From Firmicutes bacterium CAG:345 (GTDB lineage Bacteria; Bacillota_I; Bacilli_A; RFN20; CAG-288), in assembly GCA_000433315.1 (NCBI GenBank), contig FR893375.1:10718-74717 (forward strand): 64,000 bases of DNA. Direction: 5' to 3'. This document shows positions 171-51,628 of this stretch, piece after piece. Position 1 is the first letter of the stretch, and each line of letters begins with the position of its first letter. The notes beneath the pieces were generated by a model. The model did no database searches. It was not told the origin of the DNA and worked only from the letters and a program-made list of their open reading frames with translations. The position numbers were made by a program, and so were the translations under genes.

Positions 171-1817
171 ATGAAAAAGATTAATTTACTTTCAGCTTTA
201 TTCTTATGCACTATTCTTGCTTCTTGTGCTTCTGAAAACACTTCTAGTTCTTCCTCATATAGTAGTTCATCAACAATTAGTTCTTCCTCATCTAGTAGTT
301 CATCAACAATTAGTTCTTCATCTTTTGTAGTTAGCTCTGTTTCATCAAGTTCGACTATTTCATCAAGCAGCACATCAAGTTCTAGCATTTCAAATAGTAG
401 TACAAGTTCTTCATCTATTTCTTCTTCAAGTTCTTCATCTATTTCTAGTTCAACAAGCGTTCCAAGTTATGAAGGAAATATTCTTTCTTTAAATTCTAAA
501 AATTTTAATAGTGTTGATGCTTTAGTCCTAAATAATATAACTCCAAATACTCAATACGAATCTGAATTTACTTTTGCTAAAAATGGTTCTTATCTTTCAT
601 CAAAAAGAATTACTGAAATTGAAAAAATTGAAGTTTTAGTATACGGAACATACGATAATTTAAAAATGTATGCTTCTGAAAATGCTGATGAAGAAAAATT
701 AATTACTGCCACAAAAGAAGAAAAAACATCAGAAAATGAAGCTCAGAATAATGTTTTATATACTTATTCTTTTGATACTCCAACAGATGTCTTCTATTTA
801 ACTAACCCTTCTACTTATAATGTCCAAGTCTTTACAATTGATATTTATTATAAAGGACAAATAAATGATGCTGAGCCTGAACCAGTAGAAAAAGACATTA
901 CAATTTCTAGAGCTCTTGAAATCGGAAATGCATTGAGCTCAAGTCGTGGAACAACAGAAACCACTTATATTATCAATGGTGTTGTCACAAATATTTCCGG
1001 AAAAGAAGTTACAATTACTCAGGATGATTCCAGCATTATCGCCTATGTTCCAACACCTGTCGAGAACCTTTATATAGGTTATTCTGTAGCTTTAGAAGGT
1101 AAAATTCAAAATTATTATGGCAAAATAGAAATTGTTGAATTCACACTTTTAGATTATCTTGCTGCAACATATAATGTTGATTTACAAGAATTTGAAAACG
1201 GAATAGTTAATGTATCAAAATCTAGTGATATCAACTATGGTGAAGAAATTACTTTAACTGCTGTCCCTAACGAAGGATATAAAGTCCTATCTTTATTCAT
1301 CGATAACGAAAGACAAAATCTTGATGAAAACAATTCTATTTCTCTAATAATGACTCATAATATTTCAGTAAAAGCTGAATTTATTTCTAATGATGTAGTT
1401 ATCGAAGAAACTGTTACTTTAAAATATGTTTTTGCCGATTATCCTGCAGGAACACAATATGCCACTGAAACTCATAAACTTGATGAAAACACTTCTATAT
1501 CAACTGAAAAAGCTCACTTTACTTCTGAGCTTCGTCTTTATAACAGCTCAACAAATGATAGTGTTGCAACAATACATTCCGCTAAGCCTATTAAATCAAT
1601 TTATTTCAATGCTGGATATAGTGCTTCTGAATTATCAGTTTATGGTTCTACTGATGGAGAAACATTTGAACTTATTTCAGCATTAGTAACAACTTCAGCA
1701 TATAAAGTGCTTTCTCTTGAAAACATTGAAGAATCTTCCTACACATATATTAAGCTTGATGTCACTGGTTCAAAGCAAGTTAGAATTAAAGACTTCAGCA
1801 TTGTAGTTGCAAAATAA
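171..1817 (+). CDS. Surface lipoprotein. Signal peptide with lipobox LASC, a Ser-rich low-complexity linker, an OB-fold-like region (tRNA_anti/nuclease-associated type) and a Listeria-Bacteroides-repeat-like segment.
   Basis: N-terminus MKKINLLSALFLCTILASCAS (lipobox). About 100 aa of poly-Ser/Thr/Ile encoded by a tandem 33/30-nt repeat at 261..323. Motif GVVTNISGKEVTITQDDSSIIAYVP...GKIEIVEF resembles an OB-fold. GEEITLTAVPNEGYKVLSLFIDN resembles a Flg_new repeat. RBS aaaggag lies 6 nt upstream. Confidence 0.6.
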   Translation: MKKINLLSALFLCTILASCASENTSSSSSYSSSSTISSSSSSSSSTISSSSFVVSSVSSSSTISSSSTSSSSISNSSTSSSSISSSSSSSISSSTSVPSYEGNILSLNSKNFNSVDALVLNNITPNTQYESEFTFAKNGSYLSSKRITEIEKIEVLVYGTYDNLKMYASENADEEKLITATKEEKTSENEAQNNVLYTYSFDTPTDVFYLTNPSTYNVQVFTIDIYYKGQINDAEPEPVEKDITISRALEIGNALSSSRGTTETTYIINGVVTNISGKEVTITQDDSSIIAYVPTPVENLYIGYSVALEGKIQNYYGKIEIVEFTLLDYLAATYNVDLQEFENGIVNVSKSSDINYGEEITLTAVPNEGYKVLSLFIDNERQNLDENNSISLIMTHNISVKAEFISNDVVIEETVTLKYVFADYPAGTQYATETHKLDENTSISTEKAHFTSELRLYNSSTNDSVATIHSAKPIKSIYFNAGYSASELSVYGSTDGETFELISALVTTSAYKVLSLENIEESSYTYIKLDVTGSKQVRIKDFSIVVAK

Positions 1818-1822
1818 ATTAA

Positions 1823-1855
1823 AAAGCATCATAAAAGCCTCCCGCAAAAAGGAGG
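1823..1855. terminator. Bidirectional rho-independent terminator between convergent genes.
   Basis: aaaagcctcc-cgcaaaaa-ggaggctttt: a perfect 10-bp GC-containing stem flanked by an A-run (5') and a T-run (3'). Confidence 0.8.
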
Positions 1856-1871
1856 CTTTTTAATTTAATAA

Positions 1872-2984
1872 TTATTTAACTATTTCTAGTTTACCATCGA
1901 CAAGTCGTTTTGTACTTTCTTTATCAAATAAGATAATACTATTTCCAACAAAATCAATTGAAACTTCTTCATTAACTTTATAGTCGATAATACCGAAGAT
2001 AACCGAAGTTAAAATATCTTCTCCAATATCAACCTTGACTGTTGTTTCCATACCAGCAGGAAGAGTTGAATATACTTTAGCTTTTAAACCATCTTCACAG
2101 ATACGGATGAATTCTGGTCTTATTCCTATTACAACATCTTCACTTGGTAATTCAAATTCATTATTTGCTTCAAATCTAGCAACAACATTATGGAATTTAA
2201 CTTCATAAGTATTTCCTTCGATTTGTTTTGCCTTTGCTTGAATAAAATTAATAGCTGGATTACCAACAAAGTCAGCAACAAATAAATTATTAGGATTTGA
2301 ATATACATATAAAGGTGGATCATATTGTTGAAGCAATCCATTTTTCATCAAACAAACTTCAGTAGCAAGAGTCATGGCTTCAAGTTGATCATGTGTAACA
2401 TAAACAAATGTTGAATTAGTTGAAGAATGTAAACGTTTTAATTCCGTTCTCATCTCTAAACGCAATTTAGCATCTAAGTTCGATAAAGGTTCATCCATAA
2501 ATAAAACTTTTGGATTAGGTGCTAGTGTTCTAGCAATAGCAACACGTTGTTGTTGTCCACCTGATAATTGACTTGGATATCTATCAAGATAATCTTCAAT
2601 TTTTAACATTTTGACAAGTTCATCAACTCTTGCTTTAATTTGATCTTTACTCCATTTAAGATTTTCAAGGCCAAAAGCAATATTCTTATAAACTGTCATA
2701 TGTGGCCATAAAGCATAGTTTTGAAATAAGAAACCAACATTTCTTTTAGCAGGAGAAATATTGATACCCTTTTTCGAGTCAAATACTGTAACACCATCGA
2801 TTATAATTTCACCAGATGTTGGAGTTTCAAGACCAGCAATCATTCTAAGTGTGGTAGTTTTACCACAACCTGATGGTCCTAAAAGGGTAACAAATCCACG
2901 ATCTTTGATAACCATATTAAGATTATCTACAGCAATGGAATCTCCCCATTTTTTTGTTATATTTTTTAAAATAATTTCAGGCAT
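1872..2984 (-). CDS. ABC transporter ATP-binding protein, MalK/UgpC/FbpC family with a C-terminal TOBE-like domain.
   Basis: Walker A GPSGCGKTT, signature LSGGQQQRVAIAR, Walker B LFMDEPLSNLD, H-loop VTHDQ. About 130 aa of C-terminal extension typical of MalK-type importers. Confidence 0.9.
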   Translation of the reverse strand: MPEIILKNITKKWGDSIAVDNLNMVIKDRGFVTLLGPSGCGKTTTLRMIAGLETPTSGEIIIDGVTVFDSKKGINISPAKRNVGFLFQNYALWPHMTVYKNIAFGLENLKWSKDQIKARVDELVKMLKIEDYLDRYPSQLSGGQQQRVAIARTLAPNPKVLFMDEPLSNLDAKLRLEMRTELKRLHSSTNSTFVYVTHDQLEAMTLATEVCLMKNGLLQQYDPPLYVYSNPNNLFVADFVGNPAINFIQAKAKQIEGNTYEVKFHNVVARFEANNEFELPSEDVVIGIRPEFIRICEDGLKAKVYSTLPAGMETTVKVDIGEDILTSVIFGIIDYKVNEEVSIDFVGNSIILFDKESTKRLVDGKLEIVK

Positions 2985-2987
2985 ATA

Positions 2988-4871
2988 TTAACCTCCTACA
3001 CCTTTATCAATAGAAGCTCCTGTTAATTTATTAACTACAACATTAATAATTAAAACCGAGAGAATGATAATTAAATTGATACCATTACTAATTTGTGTAC
3101 AATCATATTTTTCATAGTTTTGTAAAACTGCTGTTAAAATTGTACTACTACCTGTTAATAAAACGAATAAGGTCAACTCTCTCATACAGGAAACAAATGG
3201 TAGCAAATATCCTGAAATGAAACTTGATTTTTGAATAGGGAATAAAACCTTCACCATTCTCTTCCACCAAGGAACCCCAACAATTATTGCAGCTTCTTCG
3301 ATTTCATTCGATAATTGAAGCATAGCATTTGTTCCTGATTTAGAAGCAAAAGGTAAAAATTTAATAGAGCCAACAACAATGAGTAACACTAAAGAACCAT
3401 TTAAGAAACTTAATGCACTAGTATAAGAAAGAATCAAATATATAGTAGCGAATGACATTGCTGGAATTAAGTAAGGCAAGAAAGCTAAATTACTGACATA
3501 GTTAGATAATTTACTTCCACGTCTTTTAGCAACACCATATCCTACTAAAATACCAAACGTTCCAGCAATAAATGCACAGACAATAGAAATCCATAAAGAA
3601 TTTAAGAAAGCTTTCCAGATATCAGCATTTCTTAAAATACCAACAGATCCATAAATTGACTCATTAGTTTGTTCTGTTGTAATCCAATAATATAATGTAA
3701 ATGTTGAATAATCACCAGAAACTCTTAAGAATGATTCAAGAGCAAACGATACAAGAGGAATAATGGCAAAGAAAGCTGCATATAAAACAACAATTGTAGT
3801 AATAACTGGTTTTGCAACTTTTCCAAGTTTAACAAGAGAAATTTGTGAAGATTTACCTGTTACTGTGGTAAATGATCTTTTTGAATTAGTAATAAATTGA
3901 TTAAATAAGAGAATTACAATACTGAATAACATCAATACTGTAGCCATAACATAACCTTGACCTTTATATTGAGAACCATTAATAAGATTCTTCATTTGTA
4001 AAGAAAGAGTCATGAAACCACTTTTTGTTCCTAAAAATGCAGGAACTGTATAACTACTAATAGAACTAGCAAAAACTAATAATACTGTAGAAATAAGAGC
4101 AGGCATAACAATTGGTAAAGTGATTCTTCTTAAAATTTTGAATCGAGAAGCTTTCAAAATTGTAGCAGCCTCTTCTAAGTTTGCATCCATATTTCGCAAA
4201 ATACCACCAATTAAGATATAAGCAAATGGTGCATAGTGAATACCTAAACATATTGCACAAGGCCAGAATCCATAAACAAAGCTCGCTGGTACAGCAATAT
4301 GTGTCAGTGATTGGAGCATCCCTACTTGAGCTTGGGTGCCTTCCAAATAAACATTATTTTTGAAAAAGTTTTCCCAGAACATTGCAATCGACCAACTTGG
4401 CATAATATATGGGAAAACAAATACAGTTGAAATAAATTTTTTAGCTGGGAAATCACTTCTTGTAATAAGCCAAGCAATTCCTCCACCAACAAATAATGAA
4501 ATAAGACAAGCAACTAAAGCCATCAATACTGAATTTAATAAAGGCTTATAAAATACGTTGATAGAATAATAATAGTCTTCTTTTGATACTTCAGAAAATA
4601 TACCTATCCAATGGTCCATAGTTAGTGCACCAACAGCCTTATGAAGTCTTAATGATTCACCTTGATGGACAAGAATTGTATTATATAGAAGATATACTAA
4701 AGGAATAACAACAGTAATAGTTAATAATATTGCAAAAATAACTAATATAATATTTGATGGTTTAGAAAAATATGTTTTCAATGCATTTAATATTTTTCCA
4801 AACTTAGACAATTCATCTTTATTTTTGCCCTCAGGAGTCTTATTTTCATCTAAAGATAATGTTTCGTTCAT
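2988..4871 (-). CDS. ABC transporter permease, fused two-domain type (FbpB/ThiP/PotBC-like).
   Basis: 627 aa with about 12 predicted TM helices. Two copies of the binding-protein-dependent transport (EAA-loop) domain. Sits directly between the SBP and ATPase genes. Confidence 0.8.
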   Translation of the reverse strand: MNETLSLDENKTPEGKNKDELSKFGKILNALKTYFSKPSNIILVIFAILLTITVVIPLVYLLYNTILVHQGESLRLHKAVGALTMDHWIGIFSEVSKEDYYYSINVFYKPLLNSVLMALVACLISLFVGGGIAWLITRSDFPAKKFISTVFVFPYIMPSWSIAMFWENFFKNNVYLEGTQAQVGMLQSLTHIAVPASFVYGFWPCAICLGIHYAPFAYILIGGILRNMDANLEEAATILKASRFKILRRITLPIVMPALISTVLLVFASSISSYTVPAFLGTKSGFMTLSLQMKNLINGSQYKGQGYVMATVLMLFSIVILLFNQFITNSKRSFTTVTGKSSQISLVKLGKVAKPVITTIVVLYAAFFAIIPLVSFALESFLRVSGDYSTFTLYYWITTEQTNESIYGSVGILRNADIWKAFLNSLWISIVCAFIAGTFGILVGYGVAKRRGSKLSNYVSNLAFLPYLIPAMSFATIYLILSYTSALSFLNGSLVLLIVVGSIKFLPFASKSGTNAMLQLSNEIEEAAIIVGVPWWKRMVKVLFPIQKSSFISGYLLPFVSCMRELTLFVLLTGSSTILTAVLQNYEKYDCTQISNGINLIIILSVLIINVVVNKLTGASIDKGVGG

Positions 4872-20447: not shown

Positions 20448-20837
20448 ATGAGTAAATTTGAAGAATTCAAAGAATTTTGTAAAACAAAGCCATTTCTAAT
20501 TGAAAAAATTCACAAAAAAGAAACCACATGGCAAGAATTATATGAAATCTATGATATCTATGGTAAAGATGCAGATATATTTAATGAAGAAGGAAAAAAG
20601 GAAGAAGAAAAAGTAGAAGAAACATCTGATTCAGAAGAAGAAAAAAAAGATGATAATAAAAAAGAAACTAGTGGCATTCTTGATTTATTAGGAAACTTTG
20701 ACCCAGACAAATTAGCTGATGGTTTAAATGGAGTCAAAAAAATACTGGCAGTCCTTGGAGAAGTTACAAAACCAGAAGAAAATGAGTATGTAACTAAAAG
20801 AAAAATGACAAGACCATATCAAAGGAGTGATGATTAA
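20448..20837 (+). CDS. ylbD: YlbD-like putative coat protein.
   Basis: SKFEEFKEFCKTKPFLIEKIHKKETTWQELYEIYDIYGKDADIF matches the YlbD-like family N-terminus. Acidic Lys/Glu-rich middle. RBS ggaggg. Synteny ylbD-ylbE-ylbF. Confidence 0.6.
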   Translation: MSKFEEFKEFCKTKPFLIEKIHKKETTWQELYEIYDIYGKDADIFNEEGKKEEEKVEETSDSEEEKKDDNKKETSGILDLLGNFDPDKLADGLNGVKKILAVLGEVTKPEENEYVTKRKMTRPYQRSDD

Positions 20838-21047
20838 TGCGAGAAGATGTTATAATAAGACTTGATGAGAAGCCGGATTATTATATTTTTCTTCGAGAAA
20901 AAACCTCTTTGGCATCGTGAGTTAACATTCCATCCTGAAGAATTCGAAGAATTTCTTGCTTCTTATAAGTATAAAAGACATTTAAGAATGGTAGATAAAT
21001 TAGAAAATTTATCATTGATGATGTCCTTAGCTAAGGAGTTAATGTGA
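20838..21047 (+). CDS. ylbE: YlbE-like protein, interrupted by a +1 frameshift in an A6 run (20898..20903).
   Basis: Frame 1 from ATG 20838 (overlapping TAATG, RBS aaaggag) gives MREDVIIRLDEKPDYYIFLREK and then stops at 20919. Frame 2 continues PLWHRELTFHPEEFEEF...AKELM. Joined, this resembles YlbE (..FIRMNPIWYRKLTRNP..). Confidence 0.5.
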
Positions 21048-21370
21048 ACACAGAAACATTCATACAAAAAAGAGATGAATTAATCTCAAAAATTAAAGAA
21101 CTAGATCTTTATAAAGAATACAAAAAATTAGATAGTTTAATCTATGAAGATAAAATCATTCAAGAATTAAACACAAAAAAAGAAAAACTTCTTCAAGATT
21201 ATAAATTTGCTTCAGAAGATTTGCAAAATAAAATATTGCAAGAAATTCTTTCAGTTCAAAAAGAAATAGAAAAGCAGCCACTAGTTATACGTTATAACAA
21301 AATAAAAAAAGAGTTAAAAGAATTAGTTGAACCTTTGAATACAAATATAATACAAAAAGTTTACTTTTGA
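21044..21370 (+). CDS. ylbF: YlbF/YmcA/YheA (RicF/RicA, Com_YlbF) family protein.
   Basis: GTG start with RBS aaggag. About 110-aa helical protein at the ylbF position. Confidence 0.5.
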   Translation: MNTETFIQKRDELISKIKELDLYKEYKKLDSLIYEDKIIQELNTKKEKLLQDYKFASEDLQNKILQEILSVQKEIEKQPLVIRYNKIKKELKELVEPLNTNIIQKVYF

Positions 21371-24360: not shown

Positions 24361-24627
24361 ATGGAAAACGAACAACAAAATAAAATAACACTAATCAATC
24401 GAAAGAAAATGATTATTGAAGGAGTCAAAAAACTTATCGCATTTGATGATAAAGAATTTCAAATGGAAACCAACCTTGGAAATTTAAAAATAACAGGAGT
24501 TAATTTAGGATTAGATGGCATGGATACAGCAAAAGAAATTCTATCTATTCAAGGAACGATTAACAGTCTTAAATATGATGCAGAGATTTCTTCTAAAGAA
24601 AGCATATTAAAGAAATTATTCAAGTGA
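24361..24627 (+). CDS. yabP: Sporulation protein YabP.
   Basis: ITLINRKKMIIEGVKKLIAFDDKEFQMETNLGNLKITGVNLGLD...IQGTINSLKY matches the YabP family. Confidence 0.75.
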   Translation: MENEQQNKITLINRKKMIIEGVKKLIAFDDKEFQMETNLGNLKITGVNLGLDGMDTAKEILSIQGTINSLKYDAEISSKESILKKLFK

Positions 24628-24827
24628 CCTCACTTAGAGAACAAGCAGGCGTTATTTTTGGATCGTTTCTTTTTGGTTTTTTTGTCTTTCTAACATATGA
24701 TTTTTCAACAGATTATTTTTTCGCTTCCATGGAAAATTATTTCTATTTCCATTCTATTTTTTATTATTTTTATTTTATAGTAGTACATACTATATTTTTA
24801 TCAACGAAACTTGTCATCGAATCATAA
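24624..24827 (+). CDS. yabQ: Spore cortex protein YabQ-like small membrane protein.
   Basis: Overlaps the yabP stop (ATGA). Small hydrophobic protein at the yabQ position. Confidence 0.5.
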   Translation: MTSLREQAGVIFGSFLFGFFVFLTYDFSTDYFFASMENYFYFHSIFYYFYFIVVHTIFLSTKLVIES

Positions 24828-25010
24828 ATATTTTTTATCCTCTTTCTATAATTTTAGGCTTTTATATTTATTTCAAATTTTTCAGATTATATTTTTTAAG
24901 AAGCTATAGCAATTTAATTATTAAAATAAAATGCAAAATTATTAATCCAATCACTAGACTTAAAAGAAACACATGTGCTAAACTAGAACATAGTAGAAGG
25001 CTTAAAAAAA

Positions 25011-25283
25011 ATGAAAGAAAGAAGAAAAAAAGAAAAAATAATCGGCTGGACAGCGCTTAGTATTTCTATCGCTATTTTCTCTTCTTTTTTAGGCATATAT
25101 GTTTCAAAACAAATAGAACAACAACGCTTGCAACAACAAATAAATGAGGCGCAAAAAGCTTTAGATGAAGCATTTGATTTATCTCAAAAACTCGAAGATG
25201 ATGAATATTATCAAATATATACTCCAAATGGTAATTACCTTATAACAAAAGATGGAAAAATATTAATTGACTTTGGCAAATAA
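25011..25283 (+). CDS. divIC: Septum formation initiator DivIC/FtsL-like protein.
   Basis: Basic N-terminus, a single TM, then a coiled-coil. Synteny follows yabQ. Confidence 0.6.
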   Translation: MKERRKKEKIIGWTALSISIAIFSSFLGIYVSKQIEQQRLQQQINEAQKALDEAFDLSQKLEDDEYYQIYTPNGNYLITKDGKILIDFGK

Positions 25284-25332
25284 CGACAGATTTTTAACCT
25301 CGATTCGATATTATTAAATCGAGGTTTTTTAA

Positions 25333-49370: not shown

Positions 49371-49673
49371 TTATCACGCTTTTCTGAATGCCATATTTTC
49401 AAAAATGACAAATAAATTCCTATTTAAATTCTAAAATATGTAGAATTAAAAAATAATAGGTTGTATAATTTGTACATAGTTAATGATTACGAAAAAATTA
49501 GCTATATGAATGCAATTGGATACTATTTTTTGTATATATGCAACTTCTTATAACTAATCTACATTTTTTTATTTAAATCATAATAAATAAATGTAGATTA
49601 GATAATTAAATTATATTATTTATTCTAAGAAAATCTTTTATATGTATATGTTGCTTTATGTAAAGGAGAAAAA

Positions 49674-50543
49674 ATGAATAACAAAATCGCTTTTATAGTA
49701 GACTCTACAACTATTGTCCCTGAAGAATTTGTTCAAGCCTTCCGATATGAACAAGTTTCACTCCATGTAATGATTGAAGGAAAAGAAGAAAGAGAATTAG
49801 ACCTAAAAGATGAAGACATTATTTCACGCTTGGAAAGCACAAAAAATTTAAAATCTTCTTCCCCTTCTACCGGTGAATTTCTCTTAGCTCTAGAAAAATT
49901 ATTTTCTGAAGGATATGAAGACATTATCATTATGACCATGTCAAAAGAAAATTCTACAACCTATAATGTCGCAAATATGGCTATTGATTCTTTAGATGAT
50001 GATCAAAAAAATCATGTATATAATGTTGATACCAATATTAATAACTACGGAATAACCAATATTTTAATAGCCCTTTCCTATTGGAGAGATAAAGATATCT
50101 CCGGAAAAGATTTAGCAGCTAAAGCTAATATTTATTGCCACGATTCCCACCTCGCTTTTACTCTTTTAGATTTAGTACATCTTTTTAGAGGTGGTAGACT
50201 TTCAAAAATTTCTTGTGCAATTGGTCTTTTATTTAAAATAAAACCAGTAATTGAAATGATTGATGGAAAATTAGAATTAACTAAAAAAGAAAGAGTTACA
50301 CCAAAAATCATTTCCTACTTTATGAATTTTATAGAAGAATATTCCAAAAAATATAAAAAAGTCTATTTAAGATTTGCCTATCTTGGCCCAAATAAAGAAA
50401 ACATCGATAAAATGGAAAAGATGGTAAAAGAAAAATATCAAAACATATCGATTTCAACGATTGATAGAGTTGGCCCAGTCTTCCTTGTTCATCTAGGAAA
50501 CGATGGCTTTGGAATTAGTATTACAGGTGTAGATGATCAATAA
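49674..50543 (+). CDS. DegV-family fatty-acid-binding protein.
   Basis: IAFIVDSTTIVPEEF and SSSPSTGEF motifs. 289 aa. Confidence 0.85.
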   Translation: MNNKIAFIVDSTTIVPEEFVQAFRYEQVSLHVMIEGKEERELDLKDEDIISRLESTKNLKSSSPSTGEFLLALEKLFSEGYEDIIIMTMSKENSTTYNVANMAIDSLDDDQKNHVYNVDTNINNYGITNILIALSYWRDKDISGKDLAAKANIYCHDSHLAFTLLDLVHLFRGGRLSKISCAIGLLFKIKPVIEMIDGKLELTKKERVTPKIISYFMNFIEEYSKKYKKVYLRFAYLGPNKENIDKMEKMVKEKYQNISISTIDRVGPVFLVHLGNDGFGISITGVDDQ

Positions 50544-50548
50544 AAAAA

Positions 50549-51628
50549 CTATATTTCAAAATCACCTTTTTTAATAATTCCTAGTTTTCTAAATAATAAA
50601 TCAAATAAGAAAACTAAAATTATTGGAGCTATAAAATGAAGAACTAAAATTCCAATATAAGCCATAGGATTATTATATCCCATACTCTCTAAAGTTCCTA
50701 ATTGTCCAACAAGTCCACACGTTCCCATTCCAGCACCTGCAGGTGTAGATGTCATTTTAAATACTGCTGTTGAAATAGGGCCTAAAATAGCACTTGTTAA
50801 TATAGTTGGAAGCCAAATAACTGGCTTTTTTAATATATTTTTAAATTGAAGCATTGAAGTCCCAATTCCAATAGATATAACTTTTCCAATATTGTTATCT
50901 CTGATAGATTGCACAGCAAATCCAATCATTTGCACCGAGCATCCGACAACCGCTGCACCACCAGGAATTCCTCCAAGTGATAAAGCTATTGCTATAGCTG
51001 CTGAAGAAATAGGAGCAGTTAAAGCCATTCCCATAATTACAGCAATAACAATTCCCATTGGAATTGGAGCATATTCTGTTGCAGTATTAATAAGCCATTG
51101 AATTCCATAAATTATCTGATTCAATGGAAATTCTAATGCACACCCAACAGCATATCCAATTATAATCATAAAAAATGGTATTAAAAGAATATCGACTGGT
51201 GTTTTTTTCTTAAAAATCAAACGATATATTTCTATAGCAGCAATTACAGCAAAATAAATTAATAAAGGATTATTATTCGCCTTGCCACCAGTAAAACTAA
51301 TAGAAGCACTTAACGCCCCAACAGCAGTCGCAGCAATTACTGGGAGTGGTTCTAATTTCAATGCTAATGCAATACCACATCCAATTCCAGGAGCCATCAA
51401 CCCCTGTAAAATGCTTCCGATATTAATAATAAAATCAACATTAGATAATTGGCCTATCTGCTTTATTATCGTGCCCACAATAAGCGTGGCAAAAAGACCA
51501 TAAGCCATCCCATTAGTCGTTTTTATCACATAATTTAATATTTTCTTTCCTAACTCTTTCCAATTTATTTTCTTTTTTGAAGAAAGATTTTGGTCATTAT
51601 TCTGTTCTATTTGTTGTTTTTCTTCCAT
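50549..51628 (-). CDS. Polytopic membrane protein, possibly a PTS-EIIC-like transporter.
   Basis: A Lys-rich N-terminal cytoplasmic tail, then about 10 Gly/Ala/Ile-rich TM helices. No firm motif. Confidence 0.35.
   Translation of the reverse strand: MEEKQQIEQNNDQNLSSKKKINWKELGKKILNYVIKTTNGMAYGLFATLIVGTIIKQIGQLSNVDFIINIGSILQGLMAPGIGCGIALALKLEPLPVIAATAVGALSASISFTGGKANNNPLLIYFAVIAAIEIYRLIFKKKTPVDILLIPFFMIIIGYAVGCALEFPLNQIIYGIQWLINTATEYAPIPMGIVIAVIMGMALTAPISSAAIAIALSLGGIPGGAAVVGCSVQMIGFAVQSIRDNNIGKVISIGIGTSMLQFKNILKKPVIWLPTILTSAILGPISTAVFKMTSTPAGAGMGTCGLVGQLGTLESMGYNNPMAYIGILVLHFIAPIILVFLFDLLFRKLGIIKKGDFEI

Follow-up and report, generated by a model that had tools for sequence, protein, structure and literature searches.

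The small gene ylbE is split by a frameshift in the window, the 64,000-nucleotide stretch of DNA analysed here, and is a single intact gene at each of the other conspecific loci compared. The lesion is derived and private to one strain. We conclude that it is probably a recent, strain-private inactivating mutation in an uncultured human-gut Bacilli species with 28% G+C. The finding is an ordinary one, a frameshift allele of a known family in a known neighbourhood, and a strain-private frameshift in a small gene is routine and carries little weight on its own.

The ylbE locus in the window

Taken as a whole, the window has a G+C content of 28% and is densely coding under translation table 11. 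The features at the locus are as follows.

20448 to 20837, forward strand: ylbD-like gene, 129 aa according to conspecific gene calls; Pfam PF14071 (YlbD_coat), 63.8 bits
20837 to 20920, forward strand: ylbE 5' fragment; codons 1-21 native, then six out-of-frame codons and a TGA at 20918-20920
20898 to 20903, forward strand: A6 run, the ylbE lesion; GAAAAAACCT in the window versus GAAAATCCT in all other strains, T replaced by AA, net +1 nt
20904 to 21047, forward strand: ylbE 3' part in the +1 frame (PLWHRELTF...AKELM), with TGA at 21045-21047; the conspecific allele apart from the frameshift
21044 to 21370, forward strand: ylbF (ricF)-like gene with a GTG start; Pfam PF06133 (Com_YlbF), 33.5 bits

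The TAA of the ylbD-like gene (20835-20837) and the ATG of ylbE (20837-20839) overlap by one base (TAATG), and AAAGGAG at 20821-20827 lies 9 nt 5' of the ATG. A preliminary description of this DNA had recognized both the overlap and the ribosome-binding site but had placed the ATG at 20838; it had likewise found the frame-1 stop but had set it at 20919, off by one. Frame 1 comprises 27 codons and reads MREDVIIRLDEKPDYYIFLREKTSLAS, with residues 1-21 identical to those of the conspecific 69-aa YlbE. Across the A6 run, the +1 frame reads ...EKKPLWHRELTFHPEEFEEFLASYKYKRHLRMVDKLENLSLMMSLAKELM and ends at the TGA at 21045-21047; translation bears out the A6 run at 20898-20903 and the continuation to AKELM that had been described. 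The GTG of the ylbF-like gene at 21044 overlaps this stop, with AAGGAG 5 nt 5' of the GTG.

Deletion of one A from the A6 run gives a 69-aa product that scores 27.3 bits against Pfam PF14003 (YlbE), a thin margin over the gathering cutoff of 27. The match extends across the junction (residues 16-66, profile positions 4-54 of 61), which upholds the earlier proposal that the joined product resembles YlbE. By itself, the frame-2 ORF scores 20 bits against this profile and the 5' fragment gives no score; of the YlbE domain, the 27-aa 5' product reaches just the first few positions. Like the members of PF14003 and Bacillus subtilis ylbE, the repaired product matches the profile and its gene lies between YlbD_coat and Com_YlbF genes, whereas in the window copy, unlike in those members, the frame is lost after codon 21 or 22 and the full domain cannot be encoded. 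It is not an uninterrupted single ORF, being split by the +1-nt lesion at 20898-20903. Judged from its sequence, the window ylbE is a disrupted member of the family, a pseudogene allele. An NCBIfam search of the ylbD, ylbE and ylbF products returned no model, a PDB sequence search with YlbE returned no significant solved-structure relative, and a promoter and terminator scan around the ylbD-ylbE-ylbF cluster returned nothing distinctive.

Conspecific strains and related species carry an intact ylbE

A YlbF protein identical to that of the window is listed in 3132 blocks of a public assembly collection, from which we conclude that the organism is very common in human-gut metagenomes; its exact proteins occur in 1156-3607 collection blocks, and the organism is extremely prevalent in public human-gut assemblies. 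Ten long contigs that carry this YlbF match the window at 99.5-99.9% identity across 6.3 kb, and each encodes an uninterrupted 69-aa YlbE between ylbD and ylbF. The replacement of T by AA in ylbE is the sole indel in 6.3 kb between these contigs and the window. At the site, the conspecific codons are CGA GAA AAT CCT (R-E-N-P; …RENPLW…), against CGAGAAAAAACCT in the window.

AAAAT was found at 35 of 35 conspecific loci (about 33 distinct contigs, from look-ups plus one pattern scan), all of which encode the intact 69-aa gene. That pattern scan, of metagenome contigs and with any 1-3 bases allowed after AAAA, added five contigs to this count, all AAAAT. By exact look-up, the intact 69-aa YlbE is present on at least 1000 public contigs and the 60-aa frame-2 product of the A6 allele on one, while hypothetical A5 (Lys22) and A8 versions of YlbE are absent from the collection. 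The allele states seen at the site are two, the ancestral AAAAT and the private A6, with no A5, A7 or A8 in the collection. Because the conspecific loci all read GAAAATCCT, the A6 state of the window is derived, by T→AA. The description had named an indel in the homopolymer as one possible cause of the frameshift; a one-base net shift stands, but since T is replaced by AA the event is not a pure change in homopolymer length. The intact conspecific YlbE proteins carry a precomputed PF14003 match.

The window carries the I29 allele of a neighbouring 90-aa protein, which is otherwise rare; over 12.3 kb, the strains with this allele show just 13-22 mismatches to the window. These closest relatives are 99.8-99.87% identical to the window, and their ylbE site is intact. 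A scan of genome contigs recovered relatives at 68-71% identity alone, and no representative of the species itself. Among these relatives, Clostridium sp. CAG:288 (71% identity) reads GAA AAT CCT at the site and a mouse-gut Bacilli MAG (L011; 68% identity) reads GAA AAA CCA, a natural in-frame A5 with Lys. Both related species examined (L011 and L012) have a single 69-codon ylbE ORF with the same gene overlaps and with ylbD-like and ylbF-like flanks. The pattern is that of a unitary pseudogene, with intact orthologues and a lesion absent from the closest relatives.

These comparisons settle several points of the preliminary description. The ylbD-ylbE-ylbF cluster it named is present, with PF14071 upstream and PF06133 downstream, and recurs in the conspecifics and the two related species. 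Its argument that frame 2 is the native reading, made from the ylbF GTG overlapping the frame-2 stop, agrees with the one 69-codon ORF found in all of these genomes. The comparison of orthologous loci that it had put forward as a check shows the two halves to be one intact gene in 35 of 35 conspecifics and in the two related species.

Most other shortened ylbE alleles in the P0004 protein cluster are cut off by the end of a contig or have a chimeric end; the sole distinct ylbE frameshift among them is P0004, on one 1.4-kb contig. We saw no sign of recurrent ylbE inactivation in this cluster. Two conspecific ylbE proteins, P0015 and P0016, are 81 aa long, having been translated through the TGA stop (…AKELMWTQKHSYKKEMN) into ylbF, which indicates that code 4 has been wrongly applied to some public contigs of this low-GC organism. 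For the window, a reading of TGA as Trp (code 4) was rejected: read-through in frame 1 adds no more than a brief nonsense tail, and the window is filled with long ORFs under table 11.

A second private frameshift lies in a yabQ-like gene

Conspecific contigs could be set against about 95% of the window, and three or more of them covered ~76%. The compared parts contain two coding indels, one in ylbE and one in a yabQ-like gene; all remaining indels are intergenic, and no coding indel was found in a non-sporulation gene.

24624 to 25060, forward strand: yabQ-like gene, directly 3' of yabP, with GTG at 24624; carries the second strain-private frameshift, not flagged earlier

The window has T5 at 24701-24705 of this gene versus T6 in 22 of 22 conspecific loci. 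Frame 0 keeps 27 native codons and ends at 24827 in the window, and the rest of the gene lies in another frame. The intact conspecific product (145 aa) matches Pfam Spore_YabQ over the full model at 19.6 bits, below the threshold of 27. In B. subtilis, yabQ is essential for cortex formation.

A private 1-nt deletion at 25292 (GACAGATT[A]TTTAACC), present in none of the 21 conspecific loci that cover the site, falls between the TAA of a 90-aa gene (25281-25283) and a terminator-like hairpin at 25296-25327 (AACCTCGATT...AATCGAGGTT, then a T run). The TTG start of spoIIE (25333) comes almost directly after the T tract of this hairpin. The deletion looks neutral. With those at 20898 and 24701, it makes three private 1-nt indels in 4.4 kb, a rather high indel-to-SNP ratio; the private substitutions comprise 18 synonymous, 20 nonsynonymous and 3 intergenic changes, with no nonsense change. 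Of all coding bases, 6.2% belong to sporulation-associated genes, as do 8.3% of coding A/T runs of at least 5 bases. The spoIIE, yabP, ylbD and yjcZ-like genes are intact in the window. When the same-strain census was carried past the right end of the window, only other strains were returned.

Two intergenic differences lie further along the window. At 50542-50557, between the convergent genes 49674-50543 and 50549-51628, about 53 nt are missing relative to six of six conspecific contigs; the missing piece, a terminator-like hairpin, contains an inverted repeat (CTATTAAGG...CCTTAATAG) and, after it, a T run. At 49556-49562, a private complex variant comprises two substitutions and one extra C in 7 nt, again relative to six of six conspecific contigs.

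Origin of the A6 allele and alternative explanations

The A6 allele is confined to one strain, for which three assemblies have it: the NCBI MAG GCA_900521125.1, ENA ERZ1314534 NODE_1020 and Logan ERR209142_801. All three come from different pipelines and are 100% identical to the window; for contig ULJZ01000265.1 of GCA_900521125.1, the identity holds wherever the two are comparable, and we therefore take the window to be that MAG. Run ERR321150 contains the same strain, and its contigs end before ylbE. Because three pipelines give one sequence, a pure assembler artefact is removed, and the agreement of three assemblers favours a true mutation. The three assemblies very probably share one sample or one set of reads, however, and would then not be independent biological replicates; their agreement leaves an artefact at the library or read level untouched.

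The strain might have a truly intact AAAAT (GAAAATCC in 20880-20920), with the extra base present in the reads or the consensus alone through an error of sequencing, library preparation or assembly. Such an error is favoured by the restriction of the allele to assemblies that go back to a single strain and probably to a single sample, by coverage labels of about 6 in this metagenome (5.96 for ERZ1314534 NODE_1020; the SPAdes contig headers of ~6 are modest), by the unpolished state of metagenome-assembled genomes and by the two further private 1-nt indels within 4.4 kb. It has to account, however, for an identical sequence from three independent assemblers and for a change that is not a run-length miscall: T→AA combines a substitution with an insertion, which is atypical of homopolymer miscalls in short reads. 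At runs of 4-6 nt, short reads very seldom contain indel errors, and de Bruijn assemblers require repeated k-mers, both of which speak against an error here. The placement of the indels bears on the same question. If the two coding indels were random, the probability that both would fall in sporulation genes is about 0.004-0.007, a post hoc figure with n = 2 (the value of about 0.007 is for errors scattered at random over the 805 coding A/T runs at least 5 bases long), and the non-sporulation genes in the compared ~95% of the window have no coding indel at all. This placement fits selection-filtered real mutations better than random error. We regard an artefact as unlikely, though it is the most serious of the alternatives, and infer that the lesion is present in the DNA and not in the reads alone, with probable loss of ylbE function.

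Two further readings accept the lesion as real and would keep the gene in use. In one, full-length YlbE is made from the A6 run by programmed +1 frameshifting or transcriptional slippage. Genes that use such devices include prfB (+1), dnaX and the IS3 family (-1), and poly-A transcriptional slippage rescues genes in endosymbionts. As in those systems, the frame junction in the window falls at an A run, and the product would be regained by a +1 shift on AAA-A; tRNA-Lys can re-pair in the +1 frame on AAA-A, A runs promote polymerase slippage, and the 3' frame is undamaged. Unlike in those systems, the site is not conserved, the run is short, stimulatory elements are lacking and the intact gene is the norm. 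None of the 35 conspecific loci has the run, nor does Clostridium sp. CAG:288; the A site holds no stop codon (the next 0-frame codon is an ordinary ACC), and no Shine-Dalgarno-like stimulator is evident upstream. The 20895-20995 segment is less stable in folding than its shuffled versions (z = +1.43), of which 191 of 200 fold at least as well. A6 is also shorter than the tracts known for efficient transcriptional slippage. Slippage-dependent expression, which the preliminary description had offered as one option, is therefore effectively refuted as a conserved mechanism by the occurrence of A6 in no other strain, and we consider it highly improbable in any form. In the other reading, the site is a phase-variable contingency switch or ylbE is a functional split gene. 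A mononucleotide run close to the start of a gene, where the lesion does lie, is a typical position for a switch, but this run is just 6 nt long and newly created, and other strains show no run-length polymorphism at the site. A split gene would have to start its 3' ORF at TTG 20862 or ATG 20865, neither of which has a ribosome-binding site, and its 27-aa 5' product would hold the first few YlbE domain positions alone. There is very little chance that either is correct.

Predicted course and consequences of the mutation

Under the preferred reading, an inactivating mutation has struck codon 22, whose ancestral form is AAT (Asn), within GAA AAT CCT. The replacement of T by AA could have arisen in one complex event, or in two steps, from AAT to AAA (Asn to Lys, A5) followed by +1 slippage to A6. 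The A5 intermediate would have been viable, because one related species natively reads GAA AAA CCA, but it was found in no strain, a point against the mutational reading. The event appears recent, since the 3' part has no further private changes.

A ribosome that starts at the native ATG would drop out of the YlbE frame after codon 21 or 22 and would terminate once 27 codons have been read, in the initial part of the YlbE domain match. In the 3' ORF, the earliest in-frame start codons, TTG 20862 and ATG 20865, both lack a Shine-Dalgarno sequence. With no separate ribosome-binding site, the 3' part is probably silent, and full-length YlbE is predicted not to be made. Traces of YlbE (...REKPLW...) could still arise through spontaneous +1 slippage of tRNA-Lys on AAA-A or through RNA polymerase dropping one A. 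With its own AAGGAG and GTG, ylbF should continue to be expressed, and its translational coupling to ylbE would be lost.

Sporulation genes and significance

According to Galperin et al. 2012 (PMC3533761, Table 4), ylbE is a sporulation gene that most Bacilli have and all clostridia lack. The same study lists ylbD among Bacilli-specific spore coat genes, and describes yabQ as essential for mature spore formation and as missing, among other sporulation genes, from several non-sporogenous clostridia (Galperin et al. 2012, PMC3533761). The ylbE and yabQ-like frameshifts together suggest either sporulation decay or a shared error source. Because both coding indels in the compared parts of the window fall in sporulation genes and none in housekeeping genes, we tentatively raise the possibility, itself rather doubtful, that the strain is an asporogenous variant, at an early stage of sporulation-gene decay, of a prevalent and normally spore-forming gut Bacilli species. 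As in the decay of sporulation genes in asporogenous Firmicutes, one strain is disrupted (in ylbE and the yabQ-like gene) and its relatives keep ylbE; in contrast to that decay, the comparison here covers two genes in a 64-kb window, where spoIIE, yabP, the yjcZ-like gene and ylbD remain intact. Should the read data and the remainder of the genome agree, the strain would offer a cheap, testable case of within-species sporulation loss in a very common gut species. The practical use is an annotation flag, marking ylbE and the yabQ-like gene as disrupted in MAG GCA_900521125.1.

Other strains of the species have shortened genes of their own. These include an acyltransferase (L045, 1818-2345; 175 versus 286 aa), a DAG kinase (L050, 963-1817; 121+51 versus 284 aa) and SpoIIE (L026, 1556-3367; 603 versus 672 aa). 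The genes in L045, L050 and L026 are disrupted by substitutions, not indels, and sporadic gene disruption is a normal background in the conspecific population. The conspecific contig ERZ28757441 contig_6998 (L029/L044) is 1,672,785 bp long, which suggests a small genome.
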